From a virus (Duplodnaviria; Heunggongvirae; Uroviricota; Caudoviricetes): a stretch of 27,464 nt of DNA. The first letter of the stretch is position 1. Each line of letters opens with the position of its first letter. The stretch is taken from the IMG/VR virus record IMGVR_UViG_2541047865_000002; one strand, written 5' to 3'. The notes below the pieces were generated by a model that searched no databases, had not been told where the DNA came from, and saw nothing but the letters and a program-made list of their open reading frames with translations. Both the position numbers and the translations under genes were made by a program. Shown here in pieces: positions 3,135 through 24,912 of this stretch.

Positions 3135-3737
3135 ATGAGCTATTTTCTGCGCAAAAAATGGATGGTAAATTTGTCCGGGTCAGGAAAAATTTTATGGGCG
3201 CTAAACATGAAAAAAGATTCGTATCCTTATTTGATTTGCATGACAGTTTCAGGGCTGATCTTTATTTTCCTTTTCTTCTGGTGGCGGGCAGATATCTACA
3301 GGGTCACGTTTCTTAATCAGAGTATATCCCACTATTACATTCTGTTTAGCATGGGAATAGCTTTTCTGTTATCTCTGTTTTGGGTTAAGAAGGGGATAGT
3401 AAAACAAAGAGGCTGGAAGAGTCTGTCAGCATACCTTAAGGTTTATGCAGGGATGTGCATATTTGCTGGATTTTTTCTGATTATACCCCTTACGACACTA
3501 ACTTATTTTTTGCCTGGAGAGACATCGTCTTATGTTGCACCGTATCGGTATACTTCCGGTAGTTCAAAAAGTTGTTCTGGAGCTGAGGTGGATGACCCCG
3601 ATCTACATGAGAATATTCGCATTTGCTATCCGTATGGCAATTATGAGTACGATAATATTATCTATGTTGAAAAGAAAATTAATATATTAGGTGCGGTAGT
3701 GACATATGCACAGACCGCGCGTGATGATACTGAATGA
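3135..3737 (+). CDS. Hypothetical integral membrane protein (about 3 predicted TM helices plus a C-terminal soluble domain of about 75 aa); start may instead be the ATG at 3207
   Basis: 200-codon ORF in visibly AT-rich DNA; hydrophobic stretches LICMTVSGLIFIFLFFWW, ILFSMGIAFLLSLFWV and CIFAGFFLIIPLTTL; transcribed convergently to the phage leftward operon; no family recognised. Confidence 0.55.
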   Translation: MSYFLRKKWMVNLSGSGKILWALNMKKDSYPYLICMTVSGLIFIFLFFWWRADIYRVTFLNQSISHYYILFSMGIAFLLSLFWVKKGIVKQRGWKSLSAYLKVYAGMCIFAGFFLIIPLTTLTYFLPGETSSYVAPYRYTSGSSKSCSGAEVDDPDLHENIRICYPYGNYEYDNIIYVEKKINILGAVVTYAQTARDDTE

Positions 3738-8646: not shown

Positions 8647-9087
8647 ATGCAACCAATTACATACCAACAGACTAGCGGATTTACCCCGACTGCGGTGATA
8701 AATCGTTCTCAAACAAAACAGGCGCCAGGCCACGAAAAAATCCGTGATGCCGTTCGCGCCTGGTCGGCTGCAGATAATCAGGATGTTGTTGCCGCACTCA
8801 TTGTGAATGAGTATCGGGAGCTGGGCGGCGGCACCATCGATTTCCCTGATGATGTCAGCCGTGCACGCCAGAAGTTGTTCCGCTTCCTCGATAACAAATT
8901 CGATTCTGAAAAATACCGAAATAACCTGCGTGAACTGACCCCGGCAATTCTGGCGGTACTACCGCTGGAATATCGCGGCCACCTGGTTGAGCAGGATAGC
9001 TTCATGGCTCGGCTGGTTGAAATGGAAAAGGAACTCAGTGAGGCAAAGCAGGCGGTCATTCTCAACGCACCACGCACCAGAAACTGA
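8647..9087 (+). CDS. YdaT-family protein in the cII position (CII functional analogue), 146 aa
   Basis: Follows the YdaS-like cro as in Rac-type immunity regions; SD AAGGA upstream; the family assignment is from memory of YdaT-like proteins. Confidence 0.65.
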   Translation: MQPITYQQTSGFTPTAVINRSQTKQAPGHEKIRDAVRAWSAADNQDVVAALIVNEYRELGGGTIDFPDDVSRARQKLFRFLDNKFDSEKYRNNLRELTPAILAVLPLEYRGHLVEQDSFMARLVEMEKELSEAKQAVILNAPRTRN

Positions 9088-11177: not shown

Positions 11178-11590
11178 TTAGTTATTACTTGATTTGATGG
11201 TTATCTCGAAAACATCCAATCAAATTTAATGGTTTGCTTTGTGCGGGGAACTATAACAATGTTTCTAGCTTGGTGCTGTATGAATTAGTGAATTAGTAGG
11301 GAATATATCCACACATTGATTAACACAAAAATATTTTAGATATTAAATGTAACTCAAAGGATGAGTAATAATGGTTGTGTAGCGTATAACAGGATGCTGA
11401 GGTAGTATTAAACAATGAATAAATCTGATTGACAAGCACCAGATAATACTGCGGGTCAATCATTAGACATGAACGCCACTAGTTACTGAGAGTAACTAAT
11501 GGCGTTGTGTTTATAGTTAAGATGTTTTTTAAAACATCAGGGGGGCTCTACTTGTCTTTTTTAATATGATCAATCTCATCATTAAGACAT

Positions 11591-13096
11591 TTATCTATTT
11601 TTTTTTATTAACACATTAATTTCTTCGGTGTTTTGGAGTTGAGTTGTCTTAGAAACAAAAACTCGAATAAAGAATTTAACATAGTGATAGGGTTGAAGTA
11701 CATCGTTATACTTACATAAATCATTTATTGTATACTTGCCGCCTGTTTCTTTTTTTATTATTTTAGCTTGACTTGTATCGATATCTTTAAAGTTATCTTC
11801 AATCTGAAAATCAAGAACCCATTCATCTCCTTTTAAATTATCCTCAATGATTTTGTTGATTTTCTTAGATATATTTTGTTTATATTCTTTGTATCTGTTG
11901 TCGGAAATGTTAACATTAGAAAACGTGTGTTTTTTTTCATATATTTTTTTCCAAACATTTCTATCAACAATATCTTGAATTATAGCTTGAGAATTTTTAT
12001 CTAATGTGTTTTTAAGAGTGTTTTCTAAAAACGTTTTGTCTGGGTTTTCACGATAAAAGTGTTTGATGGACTCAATGAGAGTGTTTTTAGATTTTAAAGA
12101 GACAACATCATCAGTTTTTTTTCTAGAACACGCTTTGTTAAGCATCGCAGATAGTGCACGATTGGTCTTATGAAAATAAACTTGACTATAAAGCCCACTT
12201 CTTGCATTGGCAAATTCTAGTATTGAATCCATACCACTTTCTTTATATGCCAGGTAAACACTATTTTCAACTTTCACAGGAATAAATGACATTAATAATC
12301 GTCCATAATCATAAATCCCATATTTAACGCCGGAGAAGTAGCTATCTCTAAGTAGGTAGTCCATTCTGTCCGCATCTATAGGTGAAGATGATATGATTGA
12401 ACCTAATAAAGGATATACATTTACTCCCTCAATGTTATTTTTAAAATCATATCTTTTATCAACAATTTTTATAATGCTTTCTGGATTAATAGCCGCTATG
12501 TTTTCTTTATAGACATCGTCGTCATTTGATTTATCTTGGGCTTCATTTTTTAATTCTTCAATAATTTCTTTAATAAAAATACATGATACTTGTTCGTGGG
12601 TTAACTTGTCATTATCACTTAAAGATATAATCTTATCGTATTGTTTATTTCCTTCAGTTTTGCATTTTTCTTTGAAATCTTTTACGGATATTGCAAAACT
12701 ATCGAATTGGTGGGCAAGTGGGCCATGCCCAACATCGTGTAACAATGCTGCAATACGTAACTCCTGTATAAGACTTGAAGGCATTTTTTTTATATCTAAA
12801 TATAGATCAATGCCCATATTTTTTCGATTGTAAATTAGTGCATTTAAATCAATATTTTTTAATATTTCATACGATAAATGCATTACACCGACAGAGTGTT
12901 CAAAGCGAGAGTGCATTGCAGAAGGAAATACTTTATATAGAAACGTGTTCTGCCTGATATCTCGTAGTCGTTGGAATAAAGGATGGTCAATTATCTTTTT
13001 TTCTAGCTTAGTTATTCGAATCACTCCATGTATGGGATCTAAAAACTTCCCCAGAAGTAAGTCTTCAAAGTTCTCAAGTTTGTTTTTGTTTGTCAT
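11591..13096 (-). CDS. HD-domain dNTP triphosphohydrolase-like protein (SAMHD1/dGTPase family), 501 aa; candidate anti-phage dNTP-depletion enzyme
   Basis: HD motifs HSRFEHSVGVMHLS, ALLHDVGHGPLAHQFD and DADRMDYLLRDSYFSGVKYG; SD AAGGAAAG upstream; in AT-rich cargo antisense to the phage operon. Confidence 0.8.
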   Translation of the reverse strand: MTNKNKLENFEDLLLGKFLDPIHGVIRITKLEKKIIDHPLFQRLRDIRQNTFLYKVFPSAMHSRFEHSVGVMHLSYEILKNIDLNALIYNRKNMGIDLYLDIKKMPSSLIQELRIAALLHDVGHGPLAHQFDSFAISVKDFKEKCKTEGNKQYDKIISLSDNDKLTHEQVSCIFIKEIIEELKNEAQDKSNDDDVYKENIAAINPESIIKIVDKRYDFKNNIEGVNVYPLLGSIISSSPIDADRMDYLLRDSYFSGVKYGIYDYGRLLMSFIPVKVENSVYLAYKESGMDSILEFANARSGLYSQVYFHKTNRALSAMLNKACSRKKTDDVVSLKSKNTLIESIKHFYRENPDKTFLENTLKNTLDKNSQAIIQDIVDRNVWKKIYEKKHTFSNVNISDNRYKEYKQNISKKINKIIEDNLKGDEWVLDFQIEDNFKDIDTSQAKIIKKETGGKYTINDLCKYNDVLQPYHYVKFFIRVFVSKTTQLQNTEEINVLIKKNR

Positions 13097-13455
13097 GAGG
13101 CTTTCCTTTTGCTGTAGTTATAATACGAAATTTAAATAGTAATGATGTTTATAGTTTCAATGTGTTATCTAATGGTTAACACATTGTGATGTAGCATATC
13201 AATATGGATTCATATGTTCAATTGGTCTGTGGAGTTTAGTTATGAATAAGATTGATTCTGGTAATACTTTGTAGTTTAAGCTAGAGGCGGGATTCGTGAT
13301 GTTCAAATCAGTATGTAATGGAGGTTGTGCATTAGTACTTGCTGCTGGAAATTAAAAATAAAGTTGCAAGTAATCGACGTTTTCCGAGAGGAGAATGTAA
13401 GCATCGCTGACCAAAAAGTATCAACGATGCCTGTTTTGTTTTAACTACAAATTAA

Positions 13456-13716
13456 TTAAATTGCATCTGCAAACTCTGGGATTTTTCGCTCAAGTATGAT
13501 TGATGAGTTGCTGTTGTCGCTTTTTTTATTTTCATGATTACGAATAGCCAATGACTCATTAAAGTCTTTTGCGACTGCTGTCTCAATAAATTCAATTTCT
13601 GAATCAGAGTGTTTTTTAACAGCTTCTTTGATCTCATCCAGAGTAACATAGAAAAACTCTTTTCTACGATTTACAAGATTGACTCTCTTTTTATCGAAGA
13701 CATCATGTAGTTTTTT
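13456..13716 (-). other. -1-frame continuation of the T5orf172 domain (LHDVFDKKRVNLVNRRKEFFYVTLDEIKEAVKKH...), entered at slippery heptamer A_AAA_AAC (13710..13716); either a programmed frameshift or a homopolymer frameshift mutation
   Basis: Manual translation: the domain's expected C-terminal motifs are open for 87 codons in the -1 frame starting exactly at a 7-A run; no ATG in that frame; the zero frame stops 17 codons later. Confidence 0.6.
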
Positions 13717-14957
13717 TCTAATGATGGAGCGTCCTCCGAATAAATCATGGCATGCACATCAAAAATAAAAGGAACAGATGCATCACCAAGCTCATTTACA
13801 CGGTCTTGTGGATCAAGACGTCGTGTCATGCCTATTTTATAAACATTCTCCCCAAAAGAACCTATGTTCGAAATAATATAAACATGACCTTGTTTGGTTT
13901 GTTGTGCCATGGATAATGCTCTTTGATGCTTTGATTCAGCCTGCGACAAACTCTGTTCTAGTTCGGCAATGCGATTTTCGAGGCGCTGCTTCATGTCACC
14001 AGTAACTTTTTCCATTTCCTTTCTTGCAGCTTCAATTGCTTTTTTATAACGGCGCTCTTCTGCCTCTGCGTCTTGCATGGCCTTTTCTATTTCTCGTTGT
14101 GCACGCTCCTCCTCTCTCATTTGTGCCCTTATTTCTGCCTGTTCTTCTTTTTCTTTCTGTTTTTGCTCACGATATTCATGGGTAAGCCACAACTCCTCAA
14201 GTTTTTTATTAAGGTATTTAGTATTTATATATATGTGATTTTGCTCGTTTAGTTTATTTATGGCCTCAAATGCCTTTGTGATGCGTTCTTCCATTTTAGT
14301 GATATTTTTCCACGTGCAATTACTAATTGCAGCATCACATTCATTATTAAATGCTCTAGTAGTTAGCCTAATATTTCTGTCTGTCATTTTTTTACCCTCT
14401 GCTCGAGAGCCTTCAACAGTCCATTGGGTTGTGCAATATACTGCACCAGAGTGGGTTTTATCCCGCAGCATTAATTTCTGTTCATCCCTGATGGATTTTA
14501 TTTTGTTTTTAAATTGCTCTGAATCTTCAAAATTAAAATGAGGTTCGTAAAATCCTAGTTCGGCTAGTTCAACATCTTCTGAATAAATAGAAATTTGCTT
14601 TACTAACTTATCATATATTTCTTTCTTCTCTTTATAAGTTCTTCTTAGTTCTTGGATTTGTTTATTGATACCATCCATTTTTTCAATGGTGTTTGTTAGT
14701 TCATTATTGGCATTTTCTTTTACTTTTTGGGACTCTTCTTTTATAATGGAGCATTCTTGCTCTGTTTTCTCAATAAGCTTCTTACATTCCTCTTCCACAT
14801 TAAAATAATCTGCAAAGCGAGATTTGTATTCTTCATTTTTTTGATTGCTATCACTTAATTCTAATTGTATTTTTTTGATGCGTTTGATTGCAGCTATATA
14901 TAGAACAAGAACAACCAATAAAAATATGATTGCAAGTAATAGTGGAGTTTGAGTCAT
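13671..14957 (-). CDS. Membrane-anchored coiled-coil protein with DUF4041 and the N-terminal part of a T5orf172 (GIY-YIG-like) domain; 428 aa in the zero frame
   Basis: N-terminal TM helix LLLAIIFLLVVLVLYIAAI; long coiled-coil (EERAQREIEKAMQDAEAEERRYKK...); DUF4041-like core; C-terminal GHVYIISNIGSFGENVYKIGMTRRLDPQDRVNELGDASVPFIFDVHAMIYSEDAPSLE; SD AAGGAA upstream. Confidence 0.85.
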   Translation of the reverse strand: MTQTPLLLAIIFLLVVLVLYIAAIKRIKKIQLELSDSNQKNEEYKSRFADYFNVEEECKKLIEKTEQECSIIKEESQKVKENANNELTNTIEKMDGINKQIQELRRTYKEKKEIYDKLVKQISIYSEDVELAELGFYEPHFNFEDSEQFKNKIKSIRDEQKLMLRDKTHSGAVYCTTQWTVEGSRAEGKKMTDRNIRLTTRAFNNECDAAISNCTWKNITKMEERITKAFEAINKLNEQNHIYINTKYLNKKLEELWLTHEYREQKQKEKEEQAEIRAQMREEERAQREIEKAMQDAEAEERRYKKAIEAARKEMEKVTGDMKQRLENRIAELEQSLSQAESKHQRALSMAQQTKQGHVYIISNIGSFGENVYKIGMTRRLDPQDRVNELGDASVPFIFDVHAMIYSEDAPSLEKNYMMSSIKRESIL

Positions 14958-15383
14958 TCGTGCTATTCCTTACGGACAATTTAAGACGTTTTGTATTAAA
15001 TCCTGTTCAATGTGTATGCGGGTGATTGCTACCGCTTACAATCTTCATAATTATCAGTTAGATAGACTCGCTAGTAAATAATTTCATTTTTTGCAATATT
15101 CTTATTGAATATTTCAATTTATGAAATGAGCTCTTTATCCTTTCAAGGCGAAAGGTTTCTTCTTCGGAAATATTTGCTCTCGTGTGACGTATAAAGGCCT
15201 TTGATTTTTAAAAAACAGTAGGAAATAATATAGTTACTGTCGGCCTGAACACCCGGCGGTGGGGTTGCGCTAAACGGGGACGTTTATGCGCACATACAAT
15301 CTAAACTCTCTTCTCCCTTCACAGATGCAGAAATGCACCTGCGATTTTTTGCATCCAACGTTTGACCTCTGCGGAGGTGAAGC

Positions 15384-15839
15384 ATGAACCTACCACAAGA
15401 TGGCATCAAATTACATCGTGGCAACTTCACCGCTATCGGCCAGCAGATCCAGCCTTATCTGGAGGACGGAAAATGCTTTCGCATGGTGCTTAAACCGTGG
15501 CGTGAGAAACGCAGTCTTTCCCAGAGTGCACTCAGCCACATGTGGTACAGCGAAATCAGTGAATACCTTATCAGCAGGGGTAAAACGTTCGCCACTCCAG
15601 CTTGGGTAAAAGATGCTCTCAAACACACATATCTCGGTTATGAAACCAAAGACCTGGTTGATGTCGTAACCGGTGATATCACCACTATCCAGTCGTTACG
15701 CCATACCTCCGACCTTGATACCGGAGAGATGTATGTCTTCCTGTGTAAGGTTGAAGCCTGGGCGATGAATATTGGCTGCCACCTGACTATTCCGCAGAGC
15801 TGCGAGTTCCAGCTGCTGCGTGATAAGCAGGAGGCGTAA
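15384..15839 (+). CDS. ybcN: YbcN-like nin-region protein (DLP12 ybcN homologue), 151 aa
   Basis: Protein recalled as DLP12 YbcN; first gene of a tightly overlapping nin block. Confidence 0.85.
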
Positions 15840-17406: not shown

Positions 17407-17931
17407 TTATTGTTTAACCCATAATAATTCATTGACATTGAATCCCAACTTTTGAGCGGTTCGCACATAGTCTGCTTTTACTTTATCTGGAATAGTTGGG
17501 GTCCTTGCCAGAATCCATAGGTATTCTCTGTTCGGACCACTGACAAGAGCATACTTATACTCATCATCCAGTTTGATTACATTATAGCCACCATAGAAGG
17601 GGCCAAAAAACGAAACCTTCAACGCTGCAGTTTTAGTATCTCCAGTAAAGTATGCTTTACCTTCGCTCTCGCTCCATTTATTTTTCGTTGGATCGTATCC
17701 ACGGTTAAGTACACGAATCCCTCCGTCGTTCCGTTTTCCATAAGTAGCGCTGACCTGTTCCAGACCACGTTCGAATCGGTTCTCGAGGCGAGCTATTTCA
17801 TACCACTTTCCGAGGTAGCGGTTGGCGTCAAAATTTGTAATCGGCTGCACACCTTTAGGTGGTGTCGGGACCTTACATGCTATAAGAGTGAAAGAGAGTG
17901 CAATGCCAGTCAACACAGGCCATAACTTCAT
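17407..17931 (-). CDS. Blc-like bacterial lipocalin, outer-membrane lipoprotein, 174 aa
   Basis: Signal peptide with lipobox (LIAC); strong similarity to E. coli Blc as recalled (FDANRYLGKWYEIARLENRFERGLE...SEGKAYFTGDTKTAALKVSFFGPFYGGYNVI...YLWILARTP). Confidence 0.85.
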   Translation of the reverse strand: MKLWPVLTGIALSFTLIACKVPTPPKGVQPITNFDANRYLGKWYEIARLENRFERGLEQVSATYGKRNDGGIRVLNRGYDPTKNKWSESEGKAYFTGDTKTAALKVSFFGPFYGGYNVIKLDDEYKYALVSGPNREYLWILARTPTIPDKVKADYVRTAQKLGFNVNELLWVKQ

Positions 17932-18123
17932 AATAAATCCTGTACTTTTGATAGTTGAGAGTAAGTATGAAAGATAGATGATTACGACCGATCACTTAAA
18001 GAACTTTCATACTATATTAGGAATAGTCCATAACAGAAAAATTGTCAGTGATGACGCCAGAAAGGCAATTTATTCCGTGCACTACACAGTTTATGTGTTA
18101 ATGAATTAGTCAAGGGGGAGGAT

Positions 18124-19083
18124 ATGATAAAAAAACCTGTGATTGGAATCAGCGGTTGTCTGGCCGGTTCTGCTGTTCGTTTTGATGGTGGTCACAAAAG
18201 AGCTGACTTTTTAATGGACAAATTAGTGGAATGGGTAACATTCAGACCAGTATGTCCGGAAATGGCTATAGGGCTGCCAGTTCCGCGTCCTGCTCTACGT
18301 CTTGTGCGCTCGACGCAAGGAAATATACGGATGTGTTTCAGCCACGACCAGAATGAGGATGTGACAGAGAGAATGACAGAGTTTAGTCGTTCTTATATGG
18401 ACAAATTAAAGGATGTATCGGGGTTTGTGGTTTGTGCTAAATCTCCCAGCTGTGGCATGGAGCGCGTGCGTGTCTATGATGAAAATGGTAATCGAGGTCG
18501 TAAAGATGGAGTGGGACTATTTACGAGCACTTTGATGGAAAAGTTTTCCTGGCTACCGGTTGAAGAGGATGGGCGATTACATGATCCAGTGCTTCGTGAG
18601 AATTTTGTTGAAAGAGTTTTTGCTTTGCATGAGCTCAATCACCTTTACAAGGAGAAATTATCAAGAAGAGAGTTATTAGCTTTTCATAGTCGTTATAAGC
18701 TTCAGTTGTTGGCGCATAGTCAGGCAGGCTATAAAGATATGGGACCATTTGTGGCTGCAATACACGAGTGGGCGGACCTTGAATCATACTTTGAGGTGTA
18801 TCGTGATAAGCTGATGGCGATTCTCAGAAAACCTGCATCACGTAAAAATCACACGAATGTGCTGATGCATATACAGGGGTATTTTAGTAACTACTTAAGT
18901 ACACGCCAGCGTAAAGAGTTGAGCGAGGTTATACTTAACTATCGTTCTGGCACATTACCTCTTCTTGCGCCGTTGACTCTGCTGAAGCATTATCTGGGTG
19001 AGTATCCTAATGATTACTTGCTTACACAGAATTACTTCGATCCCTATCCGGACGAACTGGCTCTAAGACTGATGGTAAATTAA
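18124..19083 (+). CDS. DUF523 (TudS-like, putative Fe-S thiouracil desulfidase) plus DUF1722 (YbgA-like) fusion protein, 319 aa
   Basis: N-terminal VIGISGCLAGSAVRFDGGHK with conserved Cys residues (C12, C44, C104/C109); C-terminal YbgA-like half; strong SD GGGGGAGGA. Confidence 0.75.
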   Translation: MIKKPVIGISGCLAGSAVRFDGGHKRADFLMDKLVEWVTFRPVCPEMAIGLPVPRPALRLVRSTQGNIRMCFSHDQNEDVTERMTEFSRSYMDKLKDVSGFVVCAKSPSCGMERVRVYDENGNRGRKDGVGLFTSTLMEKFSWLPVEEDGRLHDPVLRENFVERVFALHELNHLYKEKLSRRELLAFHSRYKLQLLAHSQAGYKDMGPFVAAIHEWADLESYFEVYRDKLMAILRKPASRKNHTNVLMHIQGYFSNYLSTRQRKELSEVILNYRSGTLPLLAPLTLLKHYLGEYPNDYLLTQNYFDPYPDELALRLMVN

Positions 19084-19425
19084 TTGTATGCGATATCATC
19101 CAAAAGGATGAGTTCCTGCATGCAGGATATTTACAATCGTAAAAACTACACTATGATACCCAGAGTGTCAGTTTGTATAAAAACTCTGTTTACGCTGAAG
19201 AAACCATTGAGATGCAACTTAAAGTTGGTAAACATGCCAGTCAAAATATATAATATTATGATTCCACGCAGCTATATATAATATAACAGATTGGTTTAAT
19301 AATTTGTCTTTGTGAGTTAAATACATAATTTTATACTTGTGATGCAATGAGATTTTCCTTATTGTTGAACTGGCGAATATTGATTTTCCACCTATACTTA
19401 CCTGGTGTAACCCCAATGATATCAG

Positions 19426-20160
19426 GTGGATAATATGCCATACATATGTTCTATCATTTTGGTGTTGAACTCGTTTGATGTCCGAATTGGTAAAGAAGAT
19501 ATTTTATTTAAAAAAGGAAGTGCTGTTCTCATTGATTACAATTTAAAAGATTTTTTTTCATCAAATATAGATCATGCAATGATCGTAGATGTTGAAGAGA
19601 AAACAGTTAATGATTTCTTTAAAAGCAACACACTCTCACCTTTTTCTGTAAGAAGGTTTTATCCGGCATACTTGATGGTGGAATGTGAAGATTTTTCATT
19701 GTTAAAGAACTTGATTGCATGCTTGAATTGTGATGGCAGAACTGTGGATTTTGTTAGAAATCAAATATCACTTGCATGTCTTGCTATCTTATCTTCAGAG
19801 AAAATAGTGCAAAGTTTTTTATTTGGATGTCTTAATAGTTTAGGAAGTAAAGTTAAGGCTATTATTCACACGGATATATCTGCAGCATGGAGACTTTGTG
19901 ATATATCTTCAAGACTGTATCTGAGTGAAAGTCTGTTAAAAAGAAAATTAAAGCACGAAGGCTTATCATTTAGTAAGTTAATTCTTGAAGAGCGAATGGT
20001 GATGGCGGAAAGGTTATTAAGCTACAATTTATATTCTGTTGGAAAAGTTACTGAGATATGCGGTTATGAAAACACGTCATATTTTGTAAGTGTTTTCAGA
20101 AGATATTTTGGTGTTCCTCCCCATCAATATTCATCAAGATTTTTTTTAGAAAAGACATGA
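19426..20160 (+). CDS. AraC/XylS-family transcriptional regulator, 244 aa
   Basis: C-terminal double HTH (…ERLLSYNLYSVGKVTEICGYENTSYFVSVFRRYFGVPPHQY); gene is visibly AT-rich with rare-codon flavour, suggesting horizontal acquisition. Confidence 0.85.
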   Translation: MDNMPYICSIILVLNSFDVRIGKEDILFKKGSAVLIDYNLKDFFSSNIDHAMIVDVEEKTVNDFFKSNTLSPFSVRRFYPAYLMVECEDFSLLKNLIACLNCDGRTVDFVRNQISLACLAILSSEKIVQSFLFGCLNSLGSKVKAIIHTDISAAWRLCDISSRLYLSESLLKRKLKHEGLSFSKLILEERMVMAERLLSYNLYSVGKVTEICGYENTSYFVSVFRRYFGVPPHQYSSRFFLEKT

Positions 20161-20353: not shown

Positions 20354-20569
20354 ATGAAATCCATGGATAAGTTAACAACGGGTGTCGCCTATGGCACCTC
20401 AGCAGGTAGTGCCGGTTACTGGTTTTTACAGCTGCTCGATAAAGTCACGCCCTCACAGTGGGCAGCAATAGGTGTGCTGGGTAGCCTGGTATTTGGCCTG
20501 CTGACGTACCTGACAAACCTTTATTTCAAGATTAAAGAAGATAAGCGCAAGGCTGCGAGAGGTGAATAA
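20354..20569 (+). CDS. S: Class II holin (phage 21 S21-type pinholin), 71 aa
   Basis: [71 protein letters not shown] closely matches S21 as recalled; two TM segments. Confidence 0.9.
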
Positions 20570-20987
20570 TGCCTCCATCATTACGAAAAGCCGTTGCTGC
20601 TGCTATTGGTGGCGGGGCTATTGCTATAGCATCTGTGCTAATCACTGGCCCAAGTGGTAACGATGGTCTGGAGGGTGTGAGACATAATCCTTACAAAGAC
20701 ATAGTTGGTGTATGGACTGTATGTTACGGGCATACAGGAAAAGACATCATTCCTGGTAAAACGTATACCGAAGCAGAGTGCAAAGCCCTCCTGAATAAAG
20801 ACCTTGCCACTGTCGCCAGACAAATTAACCCGTACATCAAAGTCGATATACCGGAAACAACGCGCGGCGCTCTTTACTCGTTCGTCTACAACGTGGGTGC
20901 TGGCAATTTCAGAACATCGACGCTTCTTCGCAAAATAAACCAGGGTGATATTAAAGGCGCATGTGATCAGCTACGGCGCTGGACATA
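20569..20987 (+). pseudogene. R: SAR endolysin (phage 21 R-type lysozyme) truncated by IS3 after about 139 codons
   Basis: N-terminal SAR domain [27 protein letters not shown] and lysozyme core match R21; the ORF runs into the IS3 terminal repeat at 20988 and ends in IS-encoded residues. Confidence 0.85.
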
Positions 20988-21017
20988 TGATCCTACCCAC
21001 GTAATATGGACACAGGC

Positions 21018-21884
21018 CTAAGCGAGGTTCTGGTTTTCAAATTGTTCCGGACTGAGGCCGCCACACCAACTGTGCCGCCGCCACCGATTGTAATCACATT
21101 CGATATAATTAAACACCGTTGCCCGCATTATTTCCCGGCTGATAAAGTGTTCTCCATGGATACATTCCACTTTCAGCGAATGAAAGAAGCTTTCCACGCA
21201 GGCATTATCGTAGCAGCAACCTTTTGCGCTCATACTTCCACGCAGATTATGCCGCTTCAGTTGCGCCTGATAATCTGCTGAACAGTACTGGCCTCCACGG
21301 TCCGTGTGAACGATAACGTTCCGGGGCCTCTTACGCCGCCACAGCGCCATCTGCAGGGCATCGCAGGCCAGTTGCGCCGTCATGCGTGGCGACATTGACC
21401 AGCCAATAACGGCACGTGACCACAGGTCAATGACCACTGCCAGATACAGCCAGCCTTCATCTGTACGTAAGTACGTGATGTCTCCTGCCCACTTCTGGTT
21501 CGGGCCACTGGCGTAAAAATCCTGCTCCAACAGATTTTCTGACACAGGCAGGCCGTGTGCGCGGTAGCTGACCGGGCTGAACTTCCGGGAGGCCTTTGCC
21601 CTCAGTCCCTGACGGCGCAGGCTTGCCGCCACGGTTTTTACGTTAAAGGGGTAACCCTGAGCACGCAGTTCATCCGTCAGGCGTGGGGCACCGTAACGCT
21701 GTTTTGACCGGGTAAAAGCCGCGAGGACAACGCTGTCGCAGTGTTGGCGGAACTGCTGACGCGTGCTTATCCTTGTCCGCCGCTGACACCACGTATACCA
21801 GCCGCTGCGGGCCACCCGGAGCACGCGGCACATTGCTTTGATGCTGAACTCAGCCTGATGTTTTTCAATAAAGACATACTTCAT
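21018..21884 (-). CDS. insF: IS3 transposase OrfB (DDE integrase domain), 288 aa
   Basis: [36 protein letters not shown]... matches IS3 InsF; start overlaps the orfA stop (AAATGA). Confidence 0.95.
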
Positions 21885-22180
21885 TTCAGGCGCTTCGCGA
21901 AGTATGTCGCGGCCTTTTGGAGGATAGCCAGCTCTTCATCCCGTTCTGCCAGCTGGCGTTTGAGACGTGCAATCTCGGTAGACATCTCCAGTTCACGTTC
22001 AGAAGACGTCTGCTGATTTTGCTGTTTACTGCGCCAGTTGTAGAGCTGTGATTCATACAGGCTGAGTTCACGGGCTGCGGCAGTAACACCGATGCGTTCA
22101 GCAAGCTTCAGGGCTTCACTGCGAAATTCAGGCGAATGCTGTTTACGGGGTTTTTTACTGGTTGATACTGTTTTTGTCAT
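21881..22180 (-). CDS. insE: IS3 transposase OrfA (HTH), 99 aa
   Basis: [54 protein letters not shown]... matches IS3 InsE. Confidence 0.9.
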
Positions 22181-22245
22181 GTGAGTCACCTCTGACTGAG
22201 AGTTTACTCACTTAGCCGCGTGTCCACTATTGCTGGGTAAGATCA

Positions 22246-22340
22246 TCCCTACTTCCCCGGATGTGGCGGACATGACGGAGGATGACGTAATGCTGATGAC
22301 AGTATCAGAAGGGATCGCAGGAGGAGTCCGGTATGGCTGA
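22246..22340 (+). pseudogene. T: 3' remnant of the lambda tail assembly gene T (G-T), truncated at the IS3 junction
   Basis: In-frame reading ...LMTVSEGIAGGVRYG* ends with its stop overlapping the H start (ATGGCTGA), the normal T-H arrangement; all upstream sequence is replaced by IS3. Confidence 0.5.
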
Positions 22341-24912
22341 ACCGGTAGGCGATCTGGTCGTTGATTTGAGTCTGGATGCGGCCAGATTTGACGAGCAGAT
22401 GGCCAGAGTCAGGCGTCATTTTTCCGGTACGGAAAGTGATGCGAAAAAAACAGCGGCAGTCGTTGAACAGTCGATGAACCGGCAGGCGCTGGCTGCACAG
22501 AAAGCGGGAATTTCCGTCGGGCAGTATAAAGCCGCCATGCGTATGCTGCCTGCGCAGTTCACTGACGTGGCCACGCAGCTTGCAGGCGGGCAAAGTCCGT
22601 GGCTGATCCTGCTGCAACAGGGGGGTCAGGTGAAGGACTCCTTCGGCGGGATGATCCCCATGTTCCGGGGGCTTGCCGGTGCGATCACCCTGCCGATGGT
22701 GGGGGCTACCTCGCTGGCGGTGGCGACCGGAGCGCTGGCGTATGCCTGGTATCAGGGCAACTCAACCCTGTCCGATTTCAACAAAACGCTGGTCCTTTCC
22801 GGCAATCAGGCGGGACTGACGGCAGATCGTATGCTGGTCCTGTCCAGAGCCGGGCAGGCGGCAGGGCTGACGTTTAACCAGACCAGCGAGTCACTCAGCG
22901 CACTGGTTAAGGCGGGGGTAAGCGGTGAGGCTCAGATTGCGTCCATCAGCCAGAGTGTGGCGCGTTTCTCCTCTGCATCCGGCGTGGAGGTGGACAAGGT
23001 CGCTGAAGCCTTCGGGAAGCTGACCACAGACCCGACGTCGGGGCTGACGGCGATGGCACGCCAGTTCCATAACGTGACGGCGGAGCAGATTGCGTATGTT
23101 GCTCAGTTGCAGCGTTCCGGAGATGAAGCCGGGGCATTGCAGGCGGCGAACGAGGCCGCAACGAAAGGGTTTGATGACCAGACCCGCCGCCTGAAAGAGA
23201 ACATGGGCACGCTGGAGACCTGGGCAGACAGGACAGCACGGGCATTCAAATCCATGTGGGATTCGGTGCTGGATATTGGTCGCCCGGACACTGCCCAGGG
23301 AATGCTGGAGAAAGCAGAAAAGGCTTTTGATGAGGCGGACAAAAAATGGCAGTGGTATCAGAGCCGGAGCCACCGGCGCGGTAAAACCTCAGCATTTCTT
23401 GCCAATCTCCGGGGAGCATGGGAGGACAGAGCGAATGCGCAACTTGGGCTTTCAGCCGCCACGTTGCAGGCCGATCTTGAAAAGGCCAGAGAGATGGCAG
23501 CAAAGGACTGGGTCGAGTCTGAGGCATCACGGCTGAAATATACCGAAGAGGCGCAGAAGGCTTACGAACGCCTGCAGACGCCGCTGGAGAAATATACCGC
23601 CCGTCAGGAAGAACTGAATAAGGCACTGAAAGACGGGAAAATCCTGCAGGCAGATTACAACACGCTGATGGCGGCAGCGAAAAAGGATTATGAAGCGACG
23701 CTGAAAAAGCCGAAGCAGTCCGGCGTGAAAGTGTCTGCAGGCGATCGCCAGGAAGACAGTGCTCATGCTGCCCTGCTGACGCTTCAGGCAGAACTCCGGA
23801 CGCTGGAGAAGCATGCCGGAGCGAATGAGAAAATCAGCCAGCAGCGCCGGGATTTGTGGAAGGCGGAGAGTCAGTTCGCTGTACTGGAGGAGGCGGCACA
23901 ACGTCGCCAGCTGTCCGCACAGGAGAAATCCCTGCTGGCGCATAAAGATGAGACGCTGGGGTACAAACGCCAGCTGGCTGCACTTGGCGACAAGGTTACG
24001 TATCAGGAGCGCCTGAATGCGCTGGCGCAGCAGGCGGATAAATTCGCACAGCAGCAACGGGCAAAACGGGCCGCCATTGATGCGAAAAACCGGGGGCTGA
24101 CTGACCGGCAGGCAGCGCGGGAAGCCACAGAACAGCGTCTGAAGGAACAGTATGGCGATAATCCGCTGGCGCTGAATAACGTCATGTCAGAGCAGAAAAA
24201 GACCTGGACGGCTGAAGACCAGCTTCGCGGGAGCTGGATGGCAGGCCTGAAGTCCGGCTGGAGTGAGTGGGAAGAGAGCGCCACGGACAGTATGTCGCAG
24301 GTTAAAAGTGCAGCCACGCAGACCTTTGATGGTATTGCGCAGAATATGGCGGCGATGCTGACCGGCAGTGAGCAGAACTGGCGCAGCTTCACCCGTTCCG
24401 TGCTGTCCATGATGACAGAAATTCTGCTTAAGCAGGCAATGGTGGGGATTGTCGGGAGTATCGGTAGCGCCATTGGCGGGGCTGTTGGTGGCGGCGCATC
24501 CGCATCAGGCGGTACAGCCATTCAGGCAGCTGCGGCGAAATTCCATTTTGCGACCGGAGGATTTACGGGAACCGGCGGCAAATATGAGCCAGCGGGGATT
24601 GTTCACCGTGGTGAATTTGTCTTCACGAAGGAGGCAACCAGCCGGATTGGTGTCGGCAACCTGTACCGCCTGATGCGGGGCTATGCGGAAGGTGGTTATG
24701 TGGGCGGTGCCGGAAGTCCGGCGCAGATGCGGCGGGCTGAAGGCATTAATTTTAATCAGAACAATCACGTGGTGATTCAGAACGACGGTACGAATGGTCT
24801 GCCAGGTCCACAGATGATGAAGGCAGTGTATGACATGGCCCGCAAGGGTGCCCGTGATGAAATTCAGGCACAGATGCGCGATGGTGGTCTGTTCTCCGGA
24901 GGTGGACGATGA
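22333..24912 (+). CDS. H: Tail tape-measure protein H, 859 aa
   Basis: Near-identical to lambda H as recalled (MAEPVGDLVVDLSLDAARFDEQMARVRRHFSGTESDAKK...); Gly-rich C-terminal region. Confidence 0.95.
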   Translation: MAEPVGDLVVDLSLDAARFDEQMARVRRHFSGTESDAKKTAAVVEQSMNRQALAAQKAGISVGQYKAAMRMLPAQFTDVATQLAGGQSPWLILLQQGGQVKDSFGGMIPMFRGLAGAITLPMVGATSLAVATGALAYAWYQGNSTLSDFNKTLVLSGNQAGLTADRMLVLSRAGQAAGLTFNQTSESLSALVKAGVSGEAQIASISQSVARFSSASGVEVDKVAEAFGKLTTDPTSGLTAMARQFHNVTAEQIAYVAQLQRSGDEAGALQAANEAATKGFDDQTRRLKENMGTLETWADRTARAFKSMWDSVLDIGRPDTAQGMLEKAEKAFDEADKKWQWYQSRSHRRGKTSAFLANLRGAWEDRANAQLGLSAATLQADLEKAREMAAKDWVESEASRLKYTEEAQKAYERLQTPLEKYTARQEELNKALKDGKILQADYNTLMAAAKKDYEATLKKPKQSGVKVSAGDRQEDSAHAALLTLQAELRTLEKHAGANEKISQQRRDLWKAESQFAVLEEAAQRRQLSAQEKSLLAHKDETLGYKRQLAALGDKVTYQERLNALAQQADKFAQQQRAKRAAIDAKNRGLTDRQAAREATEQRLKEQYGDNPLALNNVMSEQKKTWTAEDQLRGSWMAGLKSGWSEWEESATDSMSQVKSAATQTFDGIAQNMAAMLTGSEQNWRSFTRSVLSMMTEILLKQAMVGIVGSIGSAIGGAVGGGASASGGTAIQAAAAKFHFATGGFTGTGGKYEPAGIVHRGEFVFTKEATSRIGVGNLYRLMRGYAEGGYVGGAGSPAQMRRAEGINFNQNNHVVIQNDGTNGLPGPQMMKAVYDMARKGARDEIQAQMRDGGLFSGGGR

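Follow-up and report, generated by a model that had tools for sequence, protein, structure and literature searches.

Vassallo et al. (2022, PMC9519451) recovered PD-lambda-1 from Escherichia coli ECOR26 by functional selection. It consists of one gene of 1503 nt, located at 49060–50562 of QOXL01000020 and coding for RCP76574.1, and the supplement of that paper tabulates the domains DUF4041 (residues 197–252), T5orf172 (357–448), and MUG113 (373–449) for its product. Saxton et al. (Nature 2026, PMC13190303) renamed it SNIPE and described it as a membrane-bound nuclease that cuts phage DNA during injection and not after it. The protein has a periplasmic N-terminus and one inner-membrane helix, while DUF4041 and the nuclease are cytoplasmic. 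The C-terminal GIY-YIG nuclease, placed with this fold by HHpred, cleaves the entering phage DNA, and the membrane tether holds it off the chromosome; without the transmembrane helix the nuclease is toxic to the host chromosome (PMC13190303). DUF4041 binds DNA and probably also the tape measure protein of the infecting siphovirus, and SNIPE associates with ManYZ. Defense against lambda is abolished by the E414A substitution, and deletion of DUF4041 also abolishes defense (PMC13190303). Zorya and Kiwa, discussed in the same paper, likewise act at the inner membrane when the phage genome is injected; unlike SNIPE, they are multi-protein systems, and their proteins are unrelated to it. Another known kind of defense relies on dNTP-depleting HD enzymes (PMC12265719).

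The window analyzed here is the whole of a 27,464-nt stretch of DNA (IMG/VR record IMGVR_UViG_2541047865_000002). Between a ren-like gene and ninB/ybcN it very probably carries a frameshift-inactivated SNIPE gene, which is part of a low-GC moron cassette in a defective lambdoid prophage located beside ybhC in E. coli UMEA 3052-1. The features of the locus are listed in Table 1.

Table 1. Features of the SNIPE gene and of the adjacent HD gene, with positions in the window.
Feature	Position	Strand	Remarks
Whole SNIPE (PD-lambda-1) gene	13456..14957	minus	1502 nt here vs. 1503 nt when intact; frameshift allele
ORF as encoded	13671..14957	minus	428 aa: native residues 1–415 plus 13 out-of-frame residues (NYMMSSIKRESIL)
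Transmembrane helix, residues 5–24, then KRIKK	14886..14945	minus	hydropathy
Second homopolymer, A7 (mRNA), codons about 27–29	14870..14876	minus	intact here; A8, frameshifted, in IMG/VR prophage L046
DUF4041 (Pfam PF13250), residues 198–252	14202..14366	minus	Pfam, E 1e-19
T5orf172/MUG113 (GIY-YIG-type) nuclease domain, residues 357–449 after frame repair, interrupted by the frameshift	13612..13889	minus	Pfam
A7 homopolymer (mRNA sense; T7 on the plus strand), frameshift site	13711..13717	minus	A8 in intact alleles
Out-of-frame 3' part, L417–I500 and stop	13456..13710	minus	not translated with the rest
HD gene (SAMHD1-like dNTPase)	11591..13096	minus	501 aa here vs. 515 aa elsewhere; 359 nt downstream of SNIPE

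The encoded 428-aa ORF starts with the ATG at 14957 and ends at 13671 on the minus strand. Past it, the -1 frame reads LHDVFDKKRVNLVNRRKEFFYVTLDEIKEAV... up to the stop at the gene end, 13456, and insertion of one A into the A7 run gives an uninterrupted 500-aa protein, the frame-corrected (repaired) SNIPE. The span 13456–14957 assigned to this gene in a preliminary description, made by a model from the DNA letters, is exact, and all four peptides quoted there are found on the minus strand. The N-terminal transmembrane helix proposed there is the single hydrophobic segment at residues 5–24 (PLLLAIIFLLVVLVLYIAAI), with a Kyte-Doolittle 19-residue mean of 3.4, as judged by hydropathy calculation only. 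The extended charged coiled-coil is borne out as well, since E, K, R, and Q account for 45% of residues 25–130 and 58% of residues 261–350, and these stretches are predicted as long helices in the full-length AlphaFold2 model.

DUF4041, a family that also carries the label "SNIPE" in the precomputed Pfam list, is found by Pfam in the repaired protein and in the encoded 428-aa ORF alike, and most of its length has pLDDT values above 90 in the full-length AlphaFold2 model. The DUF4041 core of the preliminary description is correct as to the domain; the peptide GFYEPHF... quoted for it, however, begins at residue 135, within the same conserved core but upstream of the Pfam domain. The C-terminal T5orf172 domain, said to continue in the shifted frame, is recovered in the repaired protein, where T5orf172 (residues 357–449, E 7e-17) and MUG113 (residues 373–449, E 7e-19) are both matched nearly end to end. 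Together with DUF4041, all three Pfam profiles are thus matched by the repaired protein, and the frameshift in the A7 run splits the nuclease domain.

The frame-corrected protein matches the PADLOC PD-Lambda-1 profile PDLC03976 with an E-value of 1.3e-198 over profile positions 1–485 of 491, and the second PD-Lambda-1 profile, PDLC03977, over its full length (E 3e-195). The residues at all nine published SNIPE positions compared (E414, E223, W257, L253, E264, K305, T319, I308, and N250) agree in the repaired protein. It resembles ECOR26 PD-lambda-1 in species, in the gene length of 1503 nt and in nearly identical domain coordinates, and the two allele groups of SNIPE in E. coli differ at 4 of 500 residues. 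Judging by these coordinates, the length, the nine residues and the distance between the allele groups, this protein family has already been characterized, and so, probably, has the E. coli protein itself or an allele nearly identical to it. Some E. coli copies are now named "SNIPE associated domain-containing protein" in RefSeq. The PADLOC search of the repaired protein listed only PD-Lambda-1 and PDC-S57, and a relationship to Zorya or Kiwa was not seen in it; the NCBIfam search with SNIPE returned only coiled-coil noise below threshold. The envelope-associated defense nuclease mentioned in the preliminary description is therefore SNIPE (PMC13190303), and the frame-corrected protein belongs over its full length to PADLOC PD-Lambda-1. 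The presence of SNIPE carries in itself little weight for discovery, since the system is already known, found in 2022 and with its mechanism published in 2026.

The full-length AlphaFold2 model, based on 46 homologues, has a pLDDT of 78. Foldseek with this model, whose nuclease region has a pLDDT of about 44–84, gave matches to helical proteins alone, and PDB sequence and profile searches with SNIPE gave no real match. The 106 distinct trimmed sequences of the nuclease domain were, by inspection, too alike to deepen the alignment. By reading of the predicted structure, the order of strands and helices resembles the GIY-YIG core. T5orf172 (PF10544) and MUG113 (PF13455) are placed in the Pfam clan of GIY-YIG nucleases. 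The GIY-YIG assignment is thus drawn from Pfam membership and from the published HHpred and E414A data (PMC13190303), not from our own fold searches.

The window starts with ybhC and the integrase and excisionase genes, followed by recombination genes, genes for a cI-like repressor and a ydaT-like protein, and O, P, and the ren-like gene. The HD and SNIPE genes come next, and are followed by ybcN/ninB, ninE, ybcO, rusA, ylcG, and Q, three morons, the holin and lysozyme genes, an IS3-family element, and the tape measure gene H with M, L, K, and I. In the early-left region, a 200-aa ORF (3135–3737, plus strand) has no Pfam match, and the window differs here from the otherwise near-identical prophage L001. 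The ydaT-like gene (8647–9087, plus strand) codes for 146 aa vs. 179-aa ORFs in L001 and in a second related prophage, L005; compared with the prophage of strain WP5-S17-ESBL-11, which is 99.1% identical, it is shortened by a one-base deletion at 9074, the third frameshift in 13.3 kb. The moron block (17407–20160), located downstream of the antiterminator gene Q and partly of low GC content, encodes a Blc-like lipocalin (minus strand), a 2-thiouracil desulfurase/DUF1722 protein, and an AraC-type regulator; its place is taken by an OmpC-type porin in related prophages. The IS3-family element (21018–22189, minus strand), comprising an rve integrase-core ORF and a small upstream ORF, is located between a shortened lysozyme gene (20569–21021) and the lambda-type tape measure gene (22333–24912). 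HD and SNIPE form an island with a GC content of 33%, vs. 49% in the rest of the window. The genes for terminase, portal, head, and proximal tail are absent, and the lack of terminase, head, and proximal tail genes identifies the prophage as defective.

Compared with ECOR26 SNIPE, the copy in the window has A7, not A8, at codons 414–416, and its nuclease domain lacks the C-terminal portion. The tract starts within the codon of the catalytic Glu414 (GAA, 13716–13718). The encoded ORF contains no complete nuclease domain in one frame, and the domain becomes complete only with one base added: in the 428-aa ORF the MUG113 match covers only positions 1–41 of 73, and Pfam no longer reports T5orf172. 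E414 itself is kept in the encoded product. In the alignment of 46 homologues, which are 49–57% identical to its first sequence and come mostly from Vibrio, Shewanella, and enterobacteria, the lost part after residue 416 has 16 invariant positions (L417, H418, F421, R425, N427, N430, R432, K433, E434, F435, F436, I443, F457, T460, A463, and E468), which include the RKEFF motif at 432–436.

Because its nuclease domain is incomplete in any single frame, this copy is called a pseudogene allele and not a functional member of SNIPE, and from its sequence it is most likely a pseudogene. We infer that the allele is non-functional for defense, given the loss of residues 416–500 and the finding that E414A alone already abolishes defense (PMC13190303). 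In this reading, slippage in an A8 tract at the Glu414 codon has left A7; translation stops 13 codons on, and the nuclease fold loses its conserved C-terminal portion. The A7 copy would no longer defend, and its product would be a membrane-anchored DUF4041 protein without active nuclease. The observation made in the preliminary description is confirmed and its interpretation supported, for a gene that is known and probably inactive here.

Of 5,426 complete E. coli genomes, 131 carry the SNIPE gene. Compared with the window by an 81-nt probe that spans the tract, one carrier, TB354, is identical and the other 130 fall in the one-difference band, with one extra base in all 59 genomes of this band among the matches listed. 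The normal state of the tract in complete E. coli carriers appears to be A8. In a spread sample of genomes, 55 of 60 SNIPE copies are annotated as a single 1503-nt CDS.

It is very unlikely that the organism has an intact gene and that the A is missing through a homopolymer error of sequencing or assembly. In favor of an error, each of the three indels that separate the window from a relative 99.1% identical over 13.3 kb would shift a reading frame, and long T runs hold two of them (T9 vs. T8 at 11598; T7 vs. T8 at 13710). However, contig KE701469.1 (E. coli UMEA 3052-1, GCA_000460035.1) and an independently made Logan assembly of run SRR785866 both match positions 11200–15400 at 100% identity. 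Moreover, the exact 428-aa product (EQW37156.1/WP_021553452.1 of UMEA 3052-1), indexed in 36 blocks of the protein collection, occurs in eight places among the matches listed. These stem from isolate runs and from ENA assemblies. Among them is a second type of prophage, L005, with other morons and an HD gene of the full 515 aa; at position 13394 the recurrent A7 copies deviate from the window. Since A7 recurs in independent assemblies and in the complete genome TB354, the allele is considered real, and the explanation by sequencing error was rejected. The three frameshifts fit a decaying element. It is unlikely, too, that A7 represents a leaky or reversible "off" state, in which ribosomal or transcriptional slippage gives some full-length SNIPE, with the A8/A7/A9 tract as a contingency switch for a costly nuclease. 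A7 does place an A_AAA_AAC heptamer in phase. This heptamer is a demonstrated site of frameshifting in an E. coli IS cluster for which no stimulator is established (PMC4066793), and by frame arithmetic a -1 slip at GAA-AAA-AAC would lead to ...E414-K-N-L417-H418... in the native downstream frame, with the substitution K416N at a residue outside the invariant or nearly invariant columns of the 46-homologue alignment; transcriptional slippage on the A run could even give the wild-type full-length protein. Stimulator-less heptamers in E. coli, however, reach only 2–10 times a background of about 0.055% (PMC4066793), and a stimulating RNA structure in the 72 nt downstream of the tract is unsupported, as this segment folds no better than shuffles (z -0.93). 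Variants with A7 and A9 both exist, in different allele backgrounds, and other homopolymers and IS1/IS5 insertions disrupt the gene as well, but A8 appears fixed (130/131 complete genomes), the IS1A insertion on top of A7 in TB354 looks like decay and not like switching, and A runs are expected from the composition of a gene with about 33% GC. If the tract were such a switch, a potentially self-toxic nuclease would be under slippage-prone on/off control and the gene in the window would not be dead. A nuclease-independent role of the 428-aa protein, such as a block of injection by tape-measure binding or a dominant-negative effect, is extremely improbable: the transmembrane helix and DUF4041, through which SNIPE is proposed to contact DNA and the tape measure protein, are intact, but E414A abolished defense against lambda with all other domains kept (PMC13190303), and the 13 out-of-frame residues are under no selection.

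Frameshift inactivation is therefore the preferred reading of the SNIPE gene, and the remaining alternative concerns its neighbor. The HD dNTPase named in the preliminary description stands as to its type: in phmmer searches of the PDB the HD protein matches human SAMHD1 over residues 19–430 (E about 4e-26), with the LLHDVGHGP motif aligned, and 2hek (E 6e-30), while 2o6i is also aligned, and Pfam finds the HD domain with an E-value of 1e-6. Compared with SAMHD1-type dNTP triphosphohydrolases and with the anti-phage dGTPase and Clover CloA, it gives a weak match to the PADLOC dGTPase model (E 0.0015) and is well below the cut-off of NCBIfam dGTP_triPase. The gene is itself frameshifted (T9 vs. 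T8 at 11598–11606), so that its last 16 residues are replaced, and the exact 501-aa product occurs in only three contigs of the protein collection. A two-gene defense system of SNIPE and this downstream gene is very improbable. The two genes lie on the same strand of one low-GC island, only 359 nt apart; the HD gene is present in 21 complete E. coli genomes, the same number as carry the SNIPE allele at the level of at least 99%, and each of the 21 HD genomes listed is also listed as a carrier of that allele. Yet the HD gene was not found in 110 of the 131 E. coli SNIPE carriers, one of which, upon inspection, has SNIPE alone between ren and the nin genes, and PD-lambda-1 defends as a single gene cloned on a 1.85-kb fragment (PMC9519451 supplement; PMC13190303). 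Among HD relatives of 76–28% identity, from Proteus to Flavobacteria and Bacillus, tblastn and profile searches revealed a SNIPE homologue within 5 kb in 0 of 25, and an HD homologue accompanies none of 67 divergent viral SNIPE loci (<60% identity). The HD homologue of Proteus penneri, 76% identical (L013, 5001–6563), is placed after the tail-tip gene J of a prophage. A promoter and terminator scan of 11200–15400 found sites no more often than in shuffles and is uninformative on co-transcription of SNIPE and HD. With no consistent co-occurrence (21/131 in E. coli; 0/25; 0/67), the idea of an operon or system was rejected, and the pairing suggested in the preliminary description did not hold. 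It is a local cassette, absent outside E. coli in the sampled loci, and not a conserved two-gene system. The HD gene is best viewed as an independent moron, possibly a candidate nucleotide-depletion defense of a known kind.

The SNIPE gene is broken in other ways elsewhere in E. coli. The tract at 13711–13717 is A9 in the IMG/VR prophage L047, which belongs to the other allele group. In HH45 one base is lost in the T5 run at 14724–14728, leaving T4; by annotation, 23AR0806 and OZ547223 resemble HH45, with a split gene that spans 1801 nt. IS1 is inserted in the gene in Evo1, CP137705, and TB354, and IS5 in LP-26-E1-261 and OZ392478. Overall, SNIPE is visibly broken in at least 8 of the 131 complete E. 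coli genomes that carry it. The independent disruptions of the gene were noted in L002, L012, L046, and L047 and in CP101915, CP137705, AP038814, CM144251, and OZ392478.

Profile-based defense callers and RefSeq naming will score the locus in the window as SNIPE/DUF4041 despite its truncated nuclease domain, so that defense inventories can overcount functional copies. The repeated disruption of SNIPE in E. coli may be of interest for studies of the cost and turnover of prophage-borne defense genes.
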